Virus record (IMG/VR): IMGVR_UViG_2700989272_000006
Coordinates: 1 to 19,695 of that record
Source: a virus
Lineage: Duplodnaviria; Heunggongvirae; Uroviricota; Caudoviricetes
Strand: one strand, 5' to 3'
Length of the DNA: 19,695 nucleotides
Made by a program: the position numbers and the translations under genes. Below are positions 7,524 to 13,292 of this stretch, in pieces. Every line of letters begins with the position of its first letter. Position 1 is the first letter of the stretch. The notes under the pieces were generated by a model. It had not been told where the DNA came from. It worked only from the letters and a program-made list of their open reading frames with translations, and did no database searches.

Positions 7524-7913
7524 TCAGGCAGCTGCACCCGCCGTTTTCTCGTACTTACTGATAGTGATCTCGACCTTCCCTTCCGGGATAACCGGTCCCC
7601 ACTCCACCAGCATTCTTTTCACCTGACTGTCGTCTTCCCACACCCCCGCGTGGGTCAGGGCGTCAAACAGCGCCTTGTTATAGTTGTCCAGATCGCGGAT
7701 CCTGTTATCCGGAGGAAACAACACGATCTCCACTGAAGCAGGTGCCGACGTTGGTTTCGGCAGACGACGTAACTGCTCAACTATTGCTGCACACGCCGCG
7801 CTCTGGAATTTGCGCCCCGCCGCGCTTATCAGGCTCTTACCTGCAAACGCCACTTTGTTGGGGTGTCGCCAGTACGTGTTCACGCTGGGCGGAAAAGGCA
7901 GTATTAGCTTCAT
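7524..7913 (-). CDS. rusA: Holliday junction resolvase RusA
   Basis: 129 aa; MKLILPFPPSVNTYWRH ... RIRDLDNYNKALFDALTHAGVWEDDSQV matches RusA family hallmarks (PxxxN..Y, catalytic DLDN). ATGA overlap with the upstream gene. Confidence 0.8.
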   Translation of the reverse strand: MKLILPFPPSVNTYWRHPNKVAFAGKSLISAAGRKFQSAACAAIVEQLRRLPKPTSAPASVEIVLFPPDNRIRDLDNYNKALFDALTHAGVWEDDSQVKRMLVEWGPVIPEGKVEITISKYEKTAGAAA

Positions 7914-8236
7914 ACTTTCAGGCCCCTCTCATGTAACCAGTGGGCTGCACGCAACCTGGCGTTCTCCTCACCGGCAAGCAGTGCGCGGATGATACCGACC
8001 GCCTCGCTGTCGTCGTCCTTCACCGCGGTATGAAGCGTGATGCCCCGGGCCACGCCACGCTTTATCGTGATGACGCCTTTTTTCTCCAGTGCGCGAAGAT
8101 GCTCCACCGCTGCATTCACTGAACGGTATCCCAGCATGGTTGCCACCTCCTGATTGGTTGGCGGGAAGCCACGTTCTTTCTGATAAGAAATCAGCATATC
8201 CAGCACCTGCTGCTGGCATTGAGTTAACGTCGTCAT
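7910..8236 (-). CDS. LexA DNA-binding-domain-only protein (winged helix, no S24 peptidase domain)
   Basis: MTTLTQCQQQVLDMLISYQKERGFPPTNQEVATMLGYRSVNAAVEHLRALEKKGVITIKRGVARGITL is collinear with the LexA N-terminal domain (LTxRQxEV ... GxPPT ... EHLKALxxKGxI); only 108 aa, so the catalytic domain is absent. Confidence 0.75.
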   Translation of the reverse strand: MTTLTQCQQQVLDMLISYQKERGFPPTNQEVATMLGYRSVNAAVEHLRALEKKGVITIKRGVARGITLHTAVKDDDSEAVGIIRALLAGEENARLRAAHWLHERGLKV

Positions 8237-9380: not shown

Positions 9381-10369
9381 CCCCTGAATCCTGCCGGGAT
9401 CTGGCTGTAGTCCACGTTGTCGTAACTGGATTTGAAATATGGGTCTTCGCGTTTTTCTGTGTATGTGCTGACGGACGGCGATAAGCGCAGGGAAAGCTCA
9501 TCCCATTTTTCCCGCAGCTTCGACGGGCTGAGCACGTTACGGCACCAGAACGGATCGCGGCTGACGCGGCTGTACATCTCGCAGATTTGTTTGTGAGTAC
9601 GACCATCCTGCACACACATCAGGCGAATTTCGTTTGCCCAGGCTGTCCAGTTCGGTTCTTTGGGACGAACCACCTCGCCGTCACATTCGGCGGCCTGCTC
9701 GTACAGGGCGATGATTTTTTTCCAGAGCCACTGTGCGCAGGTCAAATCATCCTGCGTTCCCCACTGGCGCTTTTTAGGGCTGAATACAACCGCATCAGGA
9801 TGGCGAGTTAAAAACTCCTGTTCAGCCGTTTGCGTGTCCGGTTGCGAAGCGTCCGGACGAGAAGAGGTTTTATTCTCTGTAGTAATCTCTGTTGTATTCT
9901 CTGTAAGATCATTGGGCCATTTTGACCCGATGACAGCGTGTCGTTTTGAACCAATGGATCGTGTCATTTTGCGCCCATCCATCAGGTCACTTTGACCCGA
10001 TGGAGAAGTGCATTTTGACCTGATGGATTCGTTCACTTTGACCTCTTCTAAAAGCTCACTTTCATAGTTGATCGTGTAGAAGTTGGTCATGTCACGCTTC
10101 GATTTATTGAGTTGCTCGCGACGCAAAACCCCAAGTGATTTCAGGCTTGCAAATGTGCGTTTCAGAGTGGACTCTGACCAGAACGGAAACTGCTCCAGCC
10201 ACTGTTCTGTCGTGTTATAAACCCAGCGAATTCCGCCATGCTCAGTGCCTGAATTCGTTTCATTCAGCCAGTAATGAAGCTGCTGCAACACAATTGCCTC
10301 ATTCAGACCAATACGGCATGCAAGATCACGATTTATCACAATGGGCTGGGATGTCATTAACAGGCTCAT
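9377..10369 (-). CDS. Replication initiator (lambda O-like; iteron-containing gene)
   Basis: 330-aa ORF containing an internal array of six direct repeats plus 12-bp repeats encoding a Thr/Glu/Asn-rich linker (TENTTEITTENKT), the hallmark of lambdoid O genes that carry ori; N-terminal domain is HTH-like. The C-terminal domain family is not confidently assigned. Confidence 0.7.
   Translation of the reverse strand: MSLLMTSQPIVINRDLACRIGLNEAIVLQQLHYWLNETNSGTEHGGIRWVYNTTEQWLEQFPFWSESTLKRTFASLKSLGVLRREQLNKSKRDMTNFYTINYESELLEEVKVNESIRSKCTSPSGQSDLMDGRKMTRSIGSKRHAVIGSKWPNDLTENTTEITTENKTSSRPDASQPDTQTAEQEFLTRHPDAVVFSPKKRQWGTQDDLTCAQWLWKKIIALYEQAAECDGEVVRPKEPNWTAWANEIRLMCVQDGRTHKQICEMYSRVSRDPFWCRNVLSPSKLREKWDELSLRLSPSVSTYTEKREDPYFKSSYDNVDYSQIPAGFRG
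9872..9907. repeat. Three tandem 12-bp repeats (TCTCTGT core) flanking the iteron array
   Basis: ctctgt cores at 9875, 9887 and 9899; adjacent to the iterons, analogous to the repeat/AT-rich region next to lambda ori; encodes the TEN/TEI/TEN linker. Confidence 0.55.
9918..10045. repeat. Origin-like iteron array: six direct repeats (consensus approx CAYTTTGACCYGATGG) at 23-bp spacing
   Basis: Repeat starts at 9918, 9941, 9965, 9988, 10011, 10034 (cattttgacccgatg / tcgttttgaaccaatgg / cattttgcgcccatcc / cactttgacccgatgg / cattttgacctgatgg / cactttgacctc), all inside the O-like gene. Confidence 0.75.
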
Positions 10370-10590
10370 GCCGCACCTCCGAGATGCTTCATGTTTTTTC
10401 CGGAGCGAAAGGCTATAAGCGGCATACTGACGCGGTAATTACGGCCCAGCGGTTCACAAATCACCTTCTGACATTCACGGTCAACCAGGCTAACACGTAG
10501 AACATGCCCTGCAGGCGTGGTGTACCACTGACCGGGGCGAGGACAACGGAAAGTCTGATTGGTAAATCGTTTGAAAATATTCCGGATCAT
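10366..10590 (-). CDS. Hypothetical protein (74 aa), translationally coupled within the replication operon
   Basis: ATG at 10590 overlaps the Rha-gene TGA stop (ATGA), and its own stop overlaps the O-like ATG (ATGA); no recognisable domain. Confidence 0.5.
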   Translation of the reverse strand: MIRNIFKRFTNQTFRCPRPGQWYTTPAGHVLRVSLVDRECQKVICEPLGRNYRVSMPLIAFRSGKNMKHLGGAA

Positions 10591-11735
10591 TTGCGCCCCC
10601 TTACCTCTGAAGAGTTCAGCGACGAATGAATAAGACGGGCAAGAAATGCCGCATCGTTAATTCGGTCATACAGACTTACAGCCAGAGGTGATTCAGCTTT
10701 TTCCAGCATGGGATAAAGCTGCTGCAACCAGACCTGATGAATTGATGAAATGTAGGAATAGAGAACGCTGGCGTTATGTGCAACGTCGCTCGGTACAGCG
10801 GGCTTTGAAAGCTGTTTCTCCATCTGGTTAAAGGCATTGATGTATGCCTCTTTGAACTGGGCAGCACGTTTACCCGTGAAACCCATAGCAAGAAACGCAA
10901 AGCCGTCGCGGGTTATTTGATAGCAAGGTAGTTTGCGGCCTGTGCAATCGGTGTAATCACTCACCGAAAAATTGCGGGCAGTGAATGATGCGGAACATTC
11001 AAGCGTGCGGATCTTTTTCAGTACATCGTCATGACGTTTGGAGAAGAAGTTGGCAACAGCCAGGGATGAAGTAACAGCCTGACCATCAACGATGGCAATT
11101 TCAGGTTGAGTGAGGGTTGGGATCGTAGCCATGATGGCAGTCTCCGATAACAGTGAATTACCTTCACCACCGGAAACGCCAATTTCGCTGGTGGTGAACT
11201 GAACGGGGTTGGCGTAACCGGCGTTATCGGAAACCGGCGCACCTTTCGGTGCCCCCGTCCAGCCCACCATAATTTGGGTGTGCACAGACGCAGACGATAA
11301 AAAAGACGCTGGCGCGTCATATATCGCCGATAACATTTCCAGGACGCCAATCCCGACACCCGCTTTATAAGGTGCCTGAACAGTGTAACGTCCCGGAATG
11401 GCAGAATCAATGTGCTGGTGGTCCTTCACACTCAACAAAATCACGCCTGAATTTCCACAAAGGACTAAAGCACTCATGCGGGTAGTCTTTGCGAAGATAG
11501 ATAACGCGCTGTGTTTCTGGCTCCCAACGAATAACATGGACATAAAGCCCTCTTCCGTCACGAAACCAGCGGTTAAGTTCCTGCACAACTCGCCCCCCAC
11601 AGTCAGGTAAAGTTCTCTGTGGTTACTTACAGCCAGGTGATTTGGTAATCTGCATTCATGCCGTAACAACAGGTGTTCAGCGACGCTGACCACCAGCTGT
11701 TGCGACAAACGGTTATTTGCCGTTAAACTGTTCAT
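10587..11735 (-). CDS. Rha-domain phage regulatory protein with about 200-aa N-terminal extension of unknown function
   Basis: Residues about 205-300 (VTSSLAVANFFSKRHDDVLKKIRTLECS...YQITRDGFAFLAMGFTGKRAAQFKEAYINAF) match the Rha/ORF6-type pattern; ATG at 11735 with GGAGAAA SD and ATGA overlap with the upstream stop support the long form. The N-terminal half has atypical composition. Confidence 0.6.
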   Translation of the reverse strand: MNSLTANNRLSQQLVVSVAEHLLLRHECRLPNHLAVSNHRELYLTVGGELCRNLTAGFVTEEGFMSMLFVGSQKHSALSIFAKTTRMSALVLCGNSGVILLSVKDHQHIDSAIPGRYTVQAPYKAGVGIGVLEMLSAIYDAPASFLSSASVHTQIMVGWTGAPKGAPVSDNAGYANPVQFTTSEIGVSGGEGNSLLSETAIMATIPTLTQPEIAIVDGQAVTSSLAVANFFSKRHDDVLKKIRTLECSASFTARNFSVSDYTDCTGRKLPCYQITRDGFAFLAMGFTGKRAAQFKEAYINAFNQMEKQLSKPAVPSDVAHNASVLYSYISSIHQVWLQQLYPMLEKAESPLAVSLYDRINDAAFLARLIHSSLNSSEVRGRK

Positions 11736-12295
11736 GCGTTAGTTTCTCCACAGACACAAAACGCCACGACGCCCGGAGCTGCACACTCGCGGGCGTCACT
11801 CTTTTCTGGAGCGCAAAAGATTTTGTAGACCAGTGCTGCATGCTCCTGGAGCTTCGAAATTGACAGATACAACTCATCATTAATTGCTGTCTGCTCGTGT
11901 GGCTCCACTACCCCATCTTCGATTGCCGAACGAATCTGCTTTGAGTAACTCCCGATCTGTTCGATGACTTCCAGCAGGCGCTGGTTTATATCGGCGTTCT
12001 CTACTTCCTCAAGTTCAGGAAGCGATACAAACACCCCACCAGCAGACTGTGCGACAGCATCCGCAATGTAGTGAGTGCCAGCCGCGCGCTGTAAAATCAT
12101 TGCCCATCCCAGCGGGAAAATCTGATCGCCATCTGCACGAAGGCGGTTGAATAAAGCGTTCTCTGTTACATCCAGCCACTCAGCAGCTTCAGCGTAACCT
12201 CCCGGCAACGCCGCGATAGTTTTTCTGACAGCTTTCACGTACCACTCAGGCTGTTTTTCTACTTTCCAGTGATGCTTACCCACGGTTAGCCTCAT
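11732..12295 (-). CDS. Early regulatory protein in cII position (cII/YdaT-like), function unverified
   Basis: 187-aa ORF directly downstream of cro-like gene; HTH-like segment (GYAEAAEWLDVTENALFNRLR); assignment is positional. Confidence 0.45.
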   Translation of the reverse strand: MRLTVGKHHWKVEKQPEWYVKAVRKTIAALPGGYAEAAEWLDVTENALFNRLRADGDQIFPLGWAMILQRAAGTHYIADAVAQSAGGVFVSLPELEEVENADINQRLLEVIEQIGSYSKQIRSAIEDGVVEPHEQTAINDELYLSISKLQEHAALVYKIFCAPEKSDARECAAPGVVAFCVCGETNA

Positions 12296-12617: not shown

Positions 12618-13292
12618 ATGAAAACAGTCCATGACATCCGGCGGTCTAACGCCAGAAAACTGAGAGATGGTGTTGGCGGGAATTCTTCCTTTGCCACCAT
12701 GATTGATCGCGAGCCAACCCAGACCAGCAGGTTTATGGGAGATGGTGCTACTAAAAATATCGGTGACAGCATGGCACGGCACATCGAAAAATGTTTCGAC
12801 CTGCCTGTCGGATGGCTTGATCAAGAACACCAGACAACAAACATCACAAAAAAACCTGATGTTTCAATTACTAACAAACAAATAACGTTAGTCCCTGTCA
12901 TATCATGGGTACAGGCCGGAGCATGGAAAGAAGTTGGCTATTCTGAGGTTGATTTGAGCACAGCAGAAACTTATCCCTGCCCTGTACCCTGTGGCGAAAT
13001 GACTTATATCTTGCGGGTGATTGGTGATTCAATGATTGATGAGTACCGCCCGGGAGACATGATTTTTGTTGATCCTGAAGTCCCTGCCTGCCACGGTGAC
13101 GACGTTATTGCATTGATGCACGATACAGGCGAAACCACCTTCAAGCGGTTGATAGAAGATGGAACACAGCGTTACCTCAAAGCATTAAACCCAAACTGGC
13201 CTGAACCTTACATTAAGATCAACGGTAATTGCTCTATAATTGGTACAGTGATTTTCTCAGGAAAACCAAGAAGATACAAAATAAAGGCCTAA
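12618..13292 (+). CDS. cI: CI-like prophage repressor with C-terminal S24 (LexA-like) autopeptidase domain
   Basis: C-terminal domain with Ser/Lys dyad context (VIGDSM ... TFKRL) and Ala-Gly cleavage-site-like motif (VISWVQAGAW); N-terminal 70 aa HTH-like; divergent from cro with operators between. An in-frame TGA at 12567-12569 rules out an upstream extension. Confidence 0.85.
   Translation: MKTVHDIRRSNARKLRDGVGGNSSFATMIDREPTQTSRFMGDGATKNIGDSMARHIEKCFDLPVGWLDQEHQTTNITKKPDVSITNKQITLVPVISWVQAGAWKEVGYSEVDLSTAETYPCPVPCGEMTYILRVIGDSMIDEYRPGDMIFVDPEVPACHGDDVIALMHDTGETTFKRLIEDGTQRYLKALNPNWPEPYIKINGNCSIIGTVIFSGKPRRYKIKA

Follow-up and report, generated by a model that had tools for sequence, protein, structure and literature searches.

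The apparent N-terminal extension of a lambdoid prophage Rha protein is most likely a stop-free frame over a DUF4222 gene and an isrK-C4 RNA cassette

C4-type antisense RNAs are known from the immI operon of P1 and P7 (c4-icd-ant1/ant2), from the immunity region of P4 (CI RNA, seqA, seqB and seqC), and from the isrK-orf45-anrP locus of Gifsy-1. A stable processed repressor RNA of this type (about 77-88 nt) was shown in the literature for P1 and, as STnc1160, for Gifsy-1. At the Gifsy-1 locus, the isrK promoter was demonstrated experimentally, the isrK terminator allows read-through, and the processed RNA (STnc1160) is approximately 80 nt long (Hershko-Shalev et al. 2016, PMC4825925). According to the literature, P4 CI RNA acts mainly by making transcription of the replication operon terminate prematurely.

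We interpret the locus analyzed here as a known RNA-controlled module, most likely of the antirepressor type. It is located in a window of 19,695 nt (the whole stretch of DNA that was analyzed, IMG/VR record IMGVR_UViG_2700989272_000006) and belongs to the early-right operon of a prophage of the lambdoid type, whereas P1 is a plasmid prophage. The features of the locus are listed in Table 1. The window, with its candidate promoter, shares with P1/P7 the order promoter, a1, b1, C4 RNA and targets, and both have an Rfam C4 RNA. In P1 and in the window, the first target follows C4 after 3-4 nt (the P1 record labels a site 4 nt after c4 as a2, which corresponds to a' in the window), and approximately 10 nt lie between the end of the second target and the first regulated ORF. 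In P1/P7, and presumably in the window, specificity is defined by allelic loop and target sequences. In contrast to P1, however, the window has a 181-aa Rha protein in the icd position and no icd homologue, and its a1 and b1 sequences reside in a discrete terminated RNA (isrK). Furthermore, P1 Ant has an ANT/KilAC domain and not a Rha domain.

The Gifsy-1 locus contains Rfam isrK, c4-a1b1 and C4 in the window order. In both, 54 nt separate C4 from the start codon, and the Gifsy-1 promoter occupies the position of the candidate promoter of the window. The Gifsy-1 loop is complementary to the Shine-Dalgarno region. One difference concerns orf45, which in Gifsy-1 does not share the frame of anrP and runs up to the anrP start codon (AUGA), whereas the corresponding AUG of the window is in frame with the Rha ATG. 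Moreover, the Gifsy-1 module lies beside antQ in the late region. The isrJ RNA, which is present in the Gifsy-1 locus, was not found in the window by Rfam search. We considered AnrP as an orthologue of the window protein and rejected it (E 2.2; ORF6N versus Rha domain). In P4, Rfam C4 and isrK are again arranged as in the window, but the downstream genes differ. The P4 CDS annotated as "cI gene product" has its Pfam Ash match exactly over the CI/C4 RNA, the same artefact as in the window.

Table 1. Features of the Rha locus (positions are those of the window)
Feature	Position	Strand	Remarks
First 50 codons of the long ORF	11587..11735	-	between ymfL stop and DUF4222 start
DUF4222 gene, 59 aa, GTG start, GGGGGG Shine-Dalgarno	11407..11586	-	PF13973; PGAP WP_001341559.1
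Candidate isrK promoter	11382..11410	-	-35 TTGATT 11405-11410, 17-nt spacer, -10 TACACT 11382-11387
isrK-type RNA (P4 seqA / P1 a1b1 equivalent)	11299..11375	-	Rfam RF01394, 61.5 bits vs gathering score 50
a1 ATTGGCGT in isrK	11344-11351	-	copy of a' target sequence
b1 TGTTATCGG in isrK	11327-11335	-	copy of target sequence
isrK intrinsic terminator	hairpin 11305-11318, T-run 11299-11304	-	terminator-like site from scan
C4-type antisense RNA gene	11187..11274	-	Rfam RF01695, 82.8 bits vs gathering score 45, model 1-87 of 87
Conserved AUG inside C4	11268-11270	-	corresponds to first AUG of Gifsy-1 orf45
b2 loop of C4, CCGATAAC	11223-11230	-	
a2 segment of C4, ACGCCAA, single-stranded	11209-11215	-	
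a' target site ATTGGCGT	11176..11183	-	complementary to a2 of C4; begins 3 nt past C4 end
b' target site TGTTATCGGAGA	11141..11152	-	complementary to C4 loop; includes Rha Shine-Dalgarno GGAG (11142-11145)
b' segment GTTATCGG			example altered version GTCAACGG
Rha-family gene, 181 aa, MATIPTL...	10587..11132	-	Pfam and TIGR02681 matches, homologue starts, codon periodicity
74-aa ORF, overlaps Rha stop (ATGA)	10366..10590	-	annotated hypothetical protein

An earlier note on this DNA described a Rha-family regulator with a 200-aa N-terminal extension, and its account of the reading frame was accurate. The minus-strand ORF at 10587..11735 consists of 382 codons without a stop, its ATG shares an ATGA with the stop codon of the preceding ymfL/CP76 cII-like gene, and GGAG is located 10 nt upstream of this ATG (11735). 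As described, the Rha motif occupies the C-terminal half (PF09669, aa 222-307, 1.7e-30, 105.8 bits versus a cut-off of 29.9; TIGR02681, aa 213-311, 105.1 bits versus a cut-off of 45.95), and the extension is rich in Gly, Ser, Ala and Val (47% of aa 117-201 versus 31.5% of the Rha part). The frame is open in 74 of 80 IMG/VR loci selected by the Rha core alone and in every E. coli-lineage cassette allele. The statement that the extension has no recognisable domain did not hold: Phage_ASH (Pfam PF10554) matches aa 117-212 (3.6e-17, 63.2 bits versus a cut-off of 26), and the same DNA carries DUF4222 in another frame, C4 and isrK. Indeed, codons 117-212 are the conceptual translation of the candidate promoter, the isrK RNA, the C4 antisense RNA and the C4 target sites, and codons 51-110 overlie the DUF4222 gene in a different frame. 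A PDB sequence search with the 201-aa extension as query gave chance-level matches only.

The start of the Rha gene was analyzed by comparison with homologues and by codon-level variability. Only in the 181-aa form is the Rha domain N-terminal, as in other members of the family (phi80 and P22 rha; PF09669, TIGR02681), with a full-length domain match in which TIGR02681 model positions 5-106 correspond to aa 12-110 and the model starts 7 residues past the internal Met. Homologues from 74 genome loci and from phages align from residues 1-20 of this form and share no upstream part; in a comparison of phage homologues across phyla, the alignments began at residues 1-22 and none extended upstream of this form. 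Most of those with an alignment reaching residue 1 have an ATG at the position of the internal Met, a few have GTG, and these starts are preceded by GGAG or GAGG 7-10 nt upstream. Variability by codon position was 0.44/0.37/1.00 after ATG 11132, compared with 0.74/0.76/0.77 in the 83 codons before it, where no three-base periodicity was seen; periodicity starts at that ATG. Likewise, the Ash-matched region showed no three-base periodicity, i.e., no codon-level constraint in the matched frame. Furthermore, four relatives have in-frame stops 10-116 codons upstream while their 181-aa Rha ORF is intact.

Two of the checks that the earlier note had suggested, alignment of Rha homologues and codon-level conservation upstream of the internal Met, spoke for its fallback reading, in which the long form is an artefact of the reading frame and the gene truly starts at the Met of MATIPTL. 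Its proposed fusion to a new sensor or effector domain of 200 aa was not supported: there is no codon-level signal upstream of ATG 11132, and this DNA holds DUF4222 and RNA genes. A gene of about 170 aa after a separate small ORF or non-coding spacer had been anticipated; a DUF4222 ORF and RNA genes do precede the gene, but it encodes 181 aa. The C-terminal 70 aa of this form matched no family, and a PDB sequence search with the 181-aa form yielded chance-level matches only and no sequence-related solved structure. The 74-aa ORF overlapping the Rha stop probably belongs to the Rha transcription unit; it matched no Pfam or NCBIfam family.

The long frame has similarity to e14 YmfM in its aa 1-90 (BLASTP, E 6e-8, 33% identity over 99 aa), which stems in part from an MNSLT start common to both and for the most part from the region of overlap with DUF4222. 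The DUF4222 gene matches PF13973 with 9.5e-14 (51.1 bits versus a cut-off of 27). Between the window and the e14 copy, the DUF4222 frame is under purifying selection (pN 0.28, pS 0.91), whereas the long-ORF frame in the same stretch shows pN 0.43 and pS 0.28 (omega ~1.8); this frame test is limited to one divergent pair, window versus e14, because the DUF4222 relatives fetched from IMG/VR were all 98%-identical copies. Since omega is ~1.8 in the YmfM frame, we regard the YmfM similarity as a by-product of DUF4222 conservation in the other frame. A protein-level YmfM homology independent of the overlapping frame was considered and rejected on the basis of this omega value and of non-triplet indels in the 5' 50 codons. 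Like the window frame, e14 ymfM follows ymfL, has an ATGA-coupled start and overlaps a DUF4222 ORF in another frame, but its frame ends at 112 codons, and e14 lacks both the cassette and Rha. The conserved, selected frame in this comparison is DUF4222, not YmfM. The first 50 codons of the long ORF, which are 97-100% identical within the lineage, align poorly with e14 (indels of 14, 5 and 20 nt) and matched no family in a Pfam search. They probably represent a spacer (146 nt) or else a short leader coupled to ymfL, the counterpart of the 5' part of e14 ymfM.

Upstream of isrK, a candidate promoter with +1 at ~11375 was read by eye. The assignment relies on this reading and on positional conservation, because a consensus promoter scan of positions 10500-11900 called none (TTGATT-17-TACACT has 8/12 matches). 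Both hexamers hold their position in all 29 loci inspected, including Gifsy-1 (TTGACA-17-TATATT), and the sequence upstream of the -35 box is unrelated. Judging from these sequence features, this is probably an isrK promoter of the sigma-70 type.

In the C4 RNA, 20 of 26 stem pairs show compensatory (double-sided) changes among 29 sequences. In the window, the C4 loop forms 12 contiguous pairs with b', ending 8 nt before the Rha ATG. Loop b2 (CCGATAAC) pairs with TGTTATCGG at two places, and a2 (ACGCCAA) pairs with ATTGGCGT at two places. As a measure of pairing, we counted contiguous loop-to-target pairs, in place of an RNAduplex matrix. In 23 of 26 alleles, 10-12 contiguous nt of the loop are paired with a site whose end lies 6-10 nt upstream of the ATG, the sequence being different in each, and a second copy of the loop-complementary site is present within isrK in those alleles. 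This covariation of loop and target spans about a dozen allelic types. RNAduplex with the C4 core and the spacer gave -36.8 kcal/mol for cognate and -26.0 kcal/mol for non-cognate combinations, a moderate separation only, because the conserved stems pair too.

The cassette behaves as a module. In 34 of 60 genome loci scanned, which represent Rha homologues from different species, the Rha start is preceded at a distance of 45-57 nt by the end of a C4 RNA or of sRNA-Xcc1, which is similar to C4. These 34 loci are all gamma-proteobacterial, and nearly all have isrK too. The cassette together with Rha was found behind unrelated upstream DNA, with homology beginning at the -35 box. In 33 of 80 loci selected by DUF4222, the cassette is again present, with an unrelated 77-aa ORF joined to it ~8 codons past the ATG. 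Upstream open frames of 300-400 codons in Edwardsiella and Izhakiella were considered as N-terminal domains and dismissed, since they are the antisense strand of toxin-antitoxin-like genes.

We propose that the cassette is a self-contained unit comprising a sigma-70 promoter, isrK (a1, b1, terminator), C4 (a2, b2) and the targets a' and b'. At this locus we observed sequence complementarity, covariation and positional conservation; for the remaining mechanism, we infer from P1, P4 and Gifsy-1. Transcription would start at the isrK promoter, and most transcripts would end at the isrK terminator, while those reading through would contain C4 and the Rha mRNA. C4 would be cut out of the transcript and, via loop b2 and single strand a2, would pair with b' and a' of the mRNA. 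This pairing is predicted to cover the ribosome-binding site and to leave Rha untranslated in the lysogen. Because isrK has copies of the target sequences (a1 and b1), it could sequester C4 or remodel the leader, and this would turn on Rha translation. The hypervariable loop and target sequences would set the immunity specificities. By analogy, we regard the Rha protein as most likely a regulator that either is of antirepressor type or promotes lysis; the antirepressor idea has two sources, the position in the cassette (P1 ant, Gifsy-1 anrP) and annotation names. A cI-like repressor of the prophage is located at 12618-13292.

The 200-residue "extension" is most likely not protein but a stop-free frame over the DUF4222 gene (in the wrong frame), isrK and C4. 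We are highly confident that the 382-aa ORF as a whole is an annotation artefact covering a spacer, DUF4222, the regulatory cassette and a 181-aa Rha gene with its Shine-Dalgarno sequence inside b'. What speaks against an artefact is the open long frame in 74 of 80 close relatives and in all E. coli-lineage cassette alleles, as well as the ymfL coupling and GGAG of the first ATG and the phenotype reported for the equivalent e14 ORF (ymfM). The artefact explanation would be compatible with a 227-aa Rha isoform made alongside the 181-aa form from the C4 AUG at 11270 (the orf45 equivalent), as it would then apply to everything upstream of 11270. We consider this isoform unlikely. In Gifsy-1, orf45 translation from the equivalent AUG was shown experimentally and is needed for anrP translation, but the Gifsy-1 leader is out of frame with anrP and terminates where anrP begins, and according to the authors the orf45 amino acid sequence is not conserved (PMC4825925). 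In the window and in 13 of 15 Enterobacterales genome-locus alleles, the C4 AUG shares its frame with the Rha ATG and no stop intervenes; in Marinomonas, Endozoicomonas, Aeromonas and Vibrio, however, a stop follows this AUG within 8-35 codons. P1 annotates ant1 and ant2 as in-frame starts, which resembles a 227/181-aa pair. AUG 11270, in turn, lacks an upstream Shine-Dalgarno sequence, and the 46 codons that follow it show no three-base periodicity (0.69/0.74/0.80 by codon position). In Enterobacterales, the 83 codons preceding the ATG are stop-free in the Rha frame, compared with 1-6 stops in the two other frames in most alleles, and most indels in cassette alleles sum to multiples of three. 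For these two reasons, some translation through part of the cassette is plausible. A regex census comparing stop avoidance before and after the C4 AUG was not decisive, because its 22 alleles, all closely related, are too non-independent. That selection in Enterobacterales keeps the frame from the C4 AUG (possibly from isrK) to Rha open, with ribosomes crossing C4 and the leader fused to Rha, is doubtful in our estimation. If it were true, the same 138 nt would be an antisense RNA gene and would encode the N-terminal 46 residues of the 227-aa isoform, whose synthesis would bypass or report on C4 control.

Far less probable is a genuine 382-aa protein, with a YmfM-like N-terminal module, an "Ash" linker and Rha, translated from the ymfL-coupled ATG and with the RNA genes embedded in it (dual use). 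The retention of the ORF in many genomes, the ATGA coupling and GGAG at ATG 11735 and the BLASTP match to e14 YmfM would fit such a protein, as would the description of the P4 immunity RNA as "within a Bro network gene" (PMC10111431). Against it stand the omega value where DUF4222 overlaps, the missing periodicity upstream of ATG 11132, and the relatives with upstream in-frame stops and an intact Rha ORF. Moreover, the ORF encloses a positionally conserved candidate promoter as well as an intrinsic terminator, the "extension" is swapped for unrelated or antisense sequence in other taxa, and PGAP splits the region in many genomes. The PGAP alternative, a 296-aa Rha protein from ATG 11477 (MSALVLCGNSG...) overlapping the 3' end of DUF4222, is hardly credible, although it is annotated in many RefSeq E. 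coli genomes (WP_223665967.1). ATG 11477 has no preceding Shine-Dalgarno sequence and is internal to the DUF4222 gene, where its frame is not the selected one, and the model still crosses the candidate promoter, isrK and C4. Periodicity and homologue starts argue against it as they do against the 382-aa form.

The result is mainly a correction, with no new sensor domain. The proper annotation of the locus has DUF4222, isrK and C4 followed by a Rha-family protein of 181 aa, and the 382-aa or 296-aa protein model is a widespread mis-annotation of this module: as a 382-aa, 296-aa or "peptidase" model, it has spread through numerous E. coli and Salmonella records. What the Pfam Ash family describes appears to be a translated immunity-RNA cassette and not a protein. 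The cassette alleles also constitute a natural set of orthogonal antisense/target pairs, with about a dozen specificities in an otherwise near-identical prophage backbone.

In e14, ymfM overlaps a conserved, unannotated DUF4222 ORF. YmfM is reported to be an SOS-inducible division inhibitor, and the overlap raises the question of which product is behind the reported SOS-inducible filamentation.

Within a lambdoid prophage of E. coli, the 382-codon ORF lies in the immunity and early-right region, where the gene order is cI-like repressor, cro-like gene, ymfL, long ORF, 74-aa ORF, replication protein, PerC-family regulator (yfdN in RefSeq), and methyltransferase. As the earlier note had stated, the ORF begins with a Shine-Dalgarno-led ATG overlapping the upstream stop: GGAG stands 10 nt upstream, and an ATGA is shared with the preceding gene, which encodes a Phage_CP76/cII-like protein (ymfL in RefSeq). 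Pfam placed the Rha domain at aa 222 to 307 (1.7e-30), and therefore the picture of Rha confined to the C-terminal half, behind about 200 extra residues, is right as a description. The claim that these residues hold no recognizable domain was incomplete, since Phage_ASH (Ash, PF10554) matched aa 117 to 212 (3.6e-17) and aa 1 to 90 resembled YmfM of the K-12 e14 prophage (33% identity). RefSeq models of the locus disagree: some genomes carry the 382-aa version, and many others a 296-aa "Rha family" protein plus a separate 59-aa DUF4222 gene. Among the RefSeq E. coli records under window positions 10400-11900 and in protein clusters, many copies of the product are named "peptidase"; Pfam detected no peptidase domain in the long ORF.

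The extension overlaps a DUF4222 gene that has its own Shine-Dalgarno sequence (GGGGGG) and matched Pfam well past the threshold. An Rfam scan of the whole window (gathering scores, 45 for C4 and 50 for isrK) gave only two matches, C4 and isrK, both within the Ash part of the long ORF. The Ash match itself extends from the putative -10 element through isrK, C4, and the spacer to Rha codon 11. With DUF4222 in another frame and both RNAs inside the Ash part, the extension most likely consists of a spacer, an out-of-frame reading of the DUF4222 gene, and an RNA cassette (probable promoter, isrK, C4, and a spacer with target sites a′ and b′). The 382-codon stop-free frame is genuine but most likely not a protein extension, and the proposed fusion of Rha to a new domain is not upheld.

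Coordinates of features in the window and in comparison loci (L numbers)
Feature	Sequence	Position	Strand	Remarks
74-aa ORF	Window	10366-10590	-	Overlaps Rha stop (ATGA)
Long ORF	Window	10587-11735	-	382 codons
Ash match	Window	11100-11387	-	aa 117-212 of long ORF
Internal ATG	Window	11132	-	Start of 181-aa Rha
Stop-free Rha frame across cassette	Window	11133-11381	-	83 codons
GGTGGTGA	Window	11164-11171	-	In spacer
C4 antisense RNA	Window	11187-11274	-	Rfam, 82.8 bits
TCACCACC	Window	11190-11197	-	3′ strand of C4 closing stem
AUG inside C4	Window	11270	-	
isrK	Window	11299-11375	-	Rfam, 61.5 bits
Terminator-like hairpin and T-run	Window	11305-11318	-	isrK terminator
DUF4222 gene	Window	11407-11586	-	59 aa; frame other than long ORF; Pfam, 9.5e-14
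ymfM	L003 (K-12 e14)	7823-8161		
DUF4222 ORF	L003 (K-12 e14)	8002-8181	+	Pfam, 8.6e-19; TTG start; AAGGAG Shine-Dalgarno
"cI gene product" CDS	L159 (phage P4)	8168-8584	-	Pfam Ash, 4.3e-16
Region with small-gene pairs (Edwardsiella, Izhakiella)	L007; L012	1672-2188; 1513-2146	-; -	
Tandem cassettes	L015	1299-1493; 2258-2446		
Tandem cassettes	L142/L143	Upstream of 2001		

We took 74 loci with relatives of the Rha core (query, aa 202 to 382 of the long ORF) from one-genome-per-species contigs and, as a second sample, 80 close relatives from IMG/VR. In the 74 genome loci, most alignments that reached residue 1 of the 181-aa query had ATG at this point and 3 had GTG, in agreement with the suggestion that homologues start at the internal Met; GGAG or GAGG lay 7 to 10 nt ahead of the ATG. 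The open in-frame stretch upstream of it was erratic in length, with 8 to 58 codons in Marinomonas, Endozoicomonas, and Aeromonas, 60 to 140 in several Enterobacterales, and 300 to 400 in Edwardsiella and Izhakiella, where the "extension" is the antisense strand of toxin-antitoxin-like genes. These opposite-strand small-gene pairs, which resemble toxin-antitoxin modules, lie upstream of cassette and Rha, and their antisense frame yields "Rha" ORFs of 478 to 584 aa. The TIGR02681 Rha model starts 7 residues past the internal Met, and phage Rha proteins from many phyla aligned from residues 1 to 22 of the 181-aa form, never further upstream.

Mean column entropy by codon position, calculated for thirteen diverse Enterobacterales alleles, was 0.44/0.37/1.00 over the first 110 Rha codons past the internal ATG, which is the signature of coding sequence. 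Over the 83 codons ahead of the ATG it was 0.74/0.76/0.77, and periodicity was absent from every subsegment there (isrK, gap, C4, and spacer) in these alleles. The codon-level check, with periodicity only past the internal ATG, thus bears out the suspicion that the upstream frame is an artefact.

By Rfam scan, C4 or the similar sRNA-Xcc1 was present on the same strand in 34 of 60 genome loci, spanning all Enterobacterales, Marinomonas, Endozoicomonas, Aeromonas, and Vibrio loci; nearly all of the 34 also have isrK. The scan found neither RNA beside the Desulfovibrio, Bilophila, and beta-proteobacterial homologues. In the C4-bearing genome loci, 45 to 57 nt separate the C4 3′ end from the Rha start. 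RNAalifold recovered the Rfam C4 structure from 29 C4 copies, and 20 of its 26 pairs show compensatory changes on both sides.

The scanner that detected the isrK terminator called no promoter within the long ORF. TTGATT-17 nt-TACACT ends 6 nt upstream of the isrK 5′ end in the window, and both hexamers, which match the Gifsy-1 promoter (TTGACA-17-TATATT), hold their position in each of the 29 loci inspected, which range from E. coli to Vibrio. Among these loci, the DNA ahead of the -35 element is unrelated. The cassette with Rha was found after DUF4222, after another antirepressor-like gene (L095), and as tandem units (L142, L143, and L015), and in each context homology starts about 3 nt before the -35. 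In the tandem units, the two isrK-C4 cassettes point the same way, and each has a Rha-family gene behind it. Of 80 loci chosen by DUF4222 alone, 33 have the cassette joined, about 8 codons past the ATG, to an unrelated ORF of 77 aa. The opening codons of the regulated gene behave as though they belonged to the cassette, which is a portable unit of probable promoter, RNAs, and RBS. The 77-aa ORF that replaces Rha in L161 and 32 others of the IMG/VR loci L160 to L239 (regulated start, MATVPALT...) matched no Pfam family.

Prophages with near-identical DUF4222 (98 to 100%) and Rha (92 to 99%) carry sharply distinct alleles of isrK-C4-spacer, the RNAs falling to 61 to 65% identity and the spacer to 44%. 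In the alignment, the differences sit in the second C4 hairpin loop (b2) and its two complement copies, b1 inside isrK and b′ adjoining the Rha Shine-Dalgarno sequence. The window loop CCGATAAC pairs with GTTATCGG at both b1 and b′; likewise at both sites, CTTTGGTGA pairs with TCACCAAAG in the L078 type and CCGTTGAC with GTCAACGG in the L090 type. Each of L092, L004, L005, L006, L009, L012, and L015 has its own loop/target triplet, and a second covarying set joins the C4 segment a2, ACGCCAA in the window, with both copies of ATTGGCGT. Among 26 distinct alleles, 23 have a loop that makes 10 to 12 contiguous pairs with a site whose end lies 6 to 10 nt ahead of the internal ATG, compared with an average of 6.3 pairs for noncognate combinations. 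Two exceptions are instructive: b′ has lost 1 nt in L082, and L142 is a recombinant whose C4 loop fits its own b1, while its b′ belongs to another type.

The window shares the a1-b1/a2-b2/a′-b′ architecture of the phage P1 annotation. In P1, the first of the target sites begins 4 nt past c4, and the second ends 10 nt short of the icd start; the corresponding distances in the window are 3 nt and 8 nt. Together, covariation and the P1-like layout argue for occlusion as the best-supported mechanism: C4 would cover the Rha ribosome-binding site, the internal ATG being the regulated start. The matched triplets look like heteroimmune specificity types. Across the IMG/VR loci L078 to L157 and L160 to L239, in the region homologous to window positions 11133-11375, there are at least six types of cassette allele (those of the window, L078, L090, L092, L161, and L172), each with a matched triplet of its own, in an otherwise 92 to 100% identical prophage backbone. 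Separately, GGTGGTGA is complementary to TCACCACC, and this complementarity is kept in almost all Enterobacterales alleles. This candidate alternative pairing would compete with the folding or processing of C4 and may be equivalent to the alternative helices described for Gifsy-1.

In Gifsy-1, Rfam placed isrK, c4-a1b1, and C4 between antQ and STM2616 (AnrP), and C4 lies 54 nt from the start codon, as in the window. According to Hershko-Shalev et al. (PMC4825925), the isrK promoter drives this locus, and read-through of the isrK terminator produces an isrK-orf45-anrP mRNA, which is translationally silent, is activated by IsrK in trans, and has an ~80-nt RNA (STnc1160) processed out of it. The same paper describes orf45 as conserved at the nucleotide and not the amino acid level and remarks on the likeness of the locus to P4 seqA and CI. 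orf45 has as its first AUG the conserved one at C4 position +4. AnrP was ruled out as a homologue of the window protein (E 2.2), and the domains differ (ORF6N in AnrP, ANT/KilAC in P1 Ant, and Rha in the window). Nonhomologous proteins stand beside the same RNAs; thus, the RNA cassette is common and the regulated protein interchangeable. In P4, whose immunity is RNA based according to the literature, the "cI gene product" CDS matches Ash exactly over the C4/CI RNA match. Because Ash matches fall on CI/C4 in P4 and, in the window, on isrK-C4-spacer, a region without codon periodicity, Pfam Ash appears to be a conceptual translation of the RNA cassette and not a protein family.

Every in-frame Enterobacterales allele lacks stops in the Rha frame over the 83 codons upstream of the ATG, a span that covers the whole cassette in the window, L004 to L012, L015, and L078 to L157. 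The other two frames contain 1 to 6 stops in most Enterobacterales alleles, often at variable positions, and most cassette indels compensate to multiples of three. No such stop bias was seen across the cassette in more distant gamma-proteobacteria. The pattern is partly structural, because conserved RNA motifs such as GGTGGTGAG give stops in other frames only and a1 and b1 repeat a′ and b′ in phase. It may reflect a need for leader translation, which would fit the Gifsy-1 result that downstream expression needs translation of the leader ORF from the C4 AUG (PMC4825925). The window and 13 of the 15 Enterobacterales alleles from genome loci have the C4 AUG and the Rha ATG in one frame without an intervening stop, and therefore a 227-aa Rha isoform, made in addition to the 181-aa form, is conceivable. 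We consider it unlikely, given that this AUG has no Shine-Dalgarno sequence, three-base periodicity is absent upstream of the Rha ATG, the Gifsy-1 leader is in a different frame, and more distant gamma-proteobacteria have early stops. Such an isoform does not rescue the 382-aa form.

The locus is most likely of a known kind, a C4/isrK antisense-RNA cassette controlling an antirepressor-type gene, which in the window is most likely the 181-aa Rha-family gene with a DUF4222 gene ahead. Judging only by position, Rha would be an antirepressor or transcriptional regulator. Little is new in a system of this type; the practical value lies in fixing a widely propagated annotation, and further value lies in the side observations on the nature of Ash and on the ymfM/DUF4222 overlap in e14.

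For the DUF4222 stretch, one pair was compared, the window and the e14 copy. The DUF4222 frame gave a pN of 0.28 and a pS of 0.91, versus 0.43 and 0.28 (omega, ~1.8) in the long-ORF (YmfM) frame. Selection acts on the DUF4222 frame and not the YmfM frame, and therefore the BLASTP likeness to YmfM stems mostly from conservation of DUF4222 in the other frame. Over its first 50 codons, the long ORF aligned poorly with e14, with nontriplet indels. The 74-aa ORF, which had no family match, weakly resembles the DUF4222 protein (pairwise E 0.02, with 26% identity across 43 residues). In K-12, a 59-aa DUF4222 ORF that the annotation does not include overlaps, in a different frame, ymfM, which is listed there as a cell-division inhibitor. 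In the ymfM paper, the ymfM ORF was placed in pBAD24 and no controls were specific to one frame; the DUF4222 product, which in this clone would miss only its last 6 codons, could therefore be behind the filamentation phenotype.
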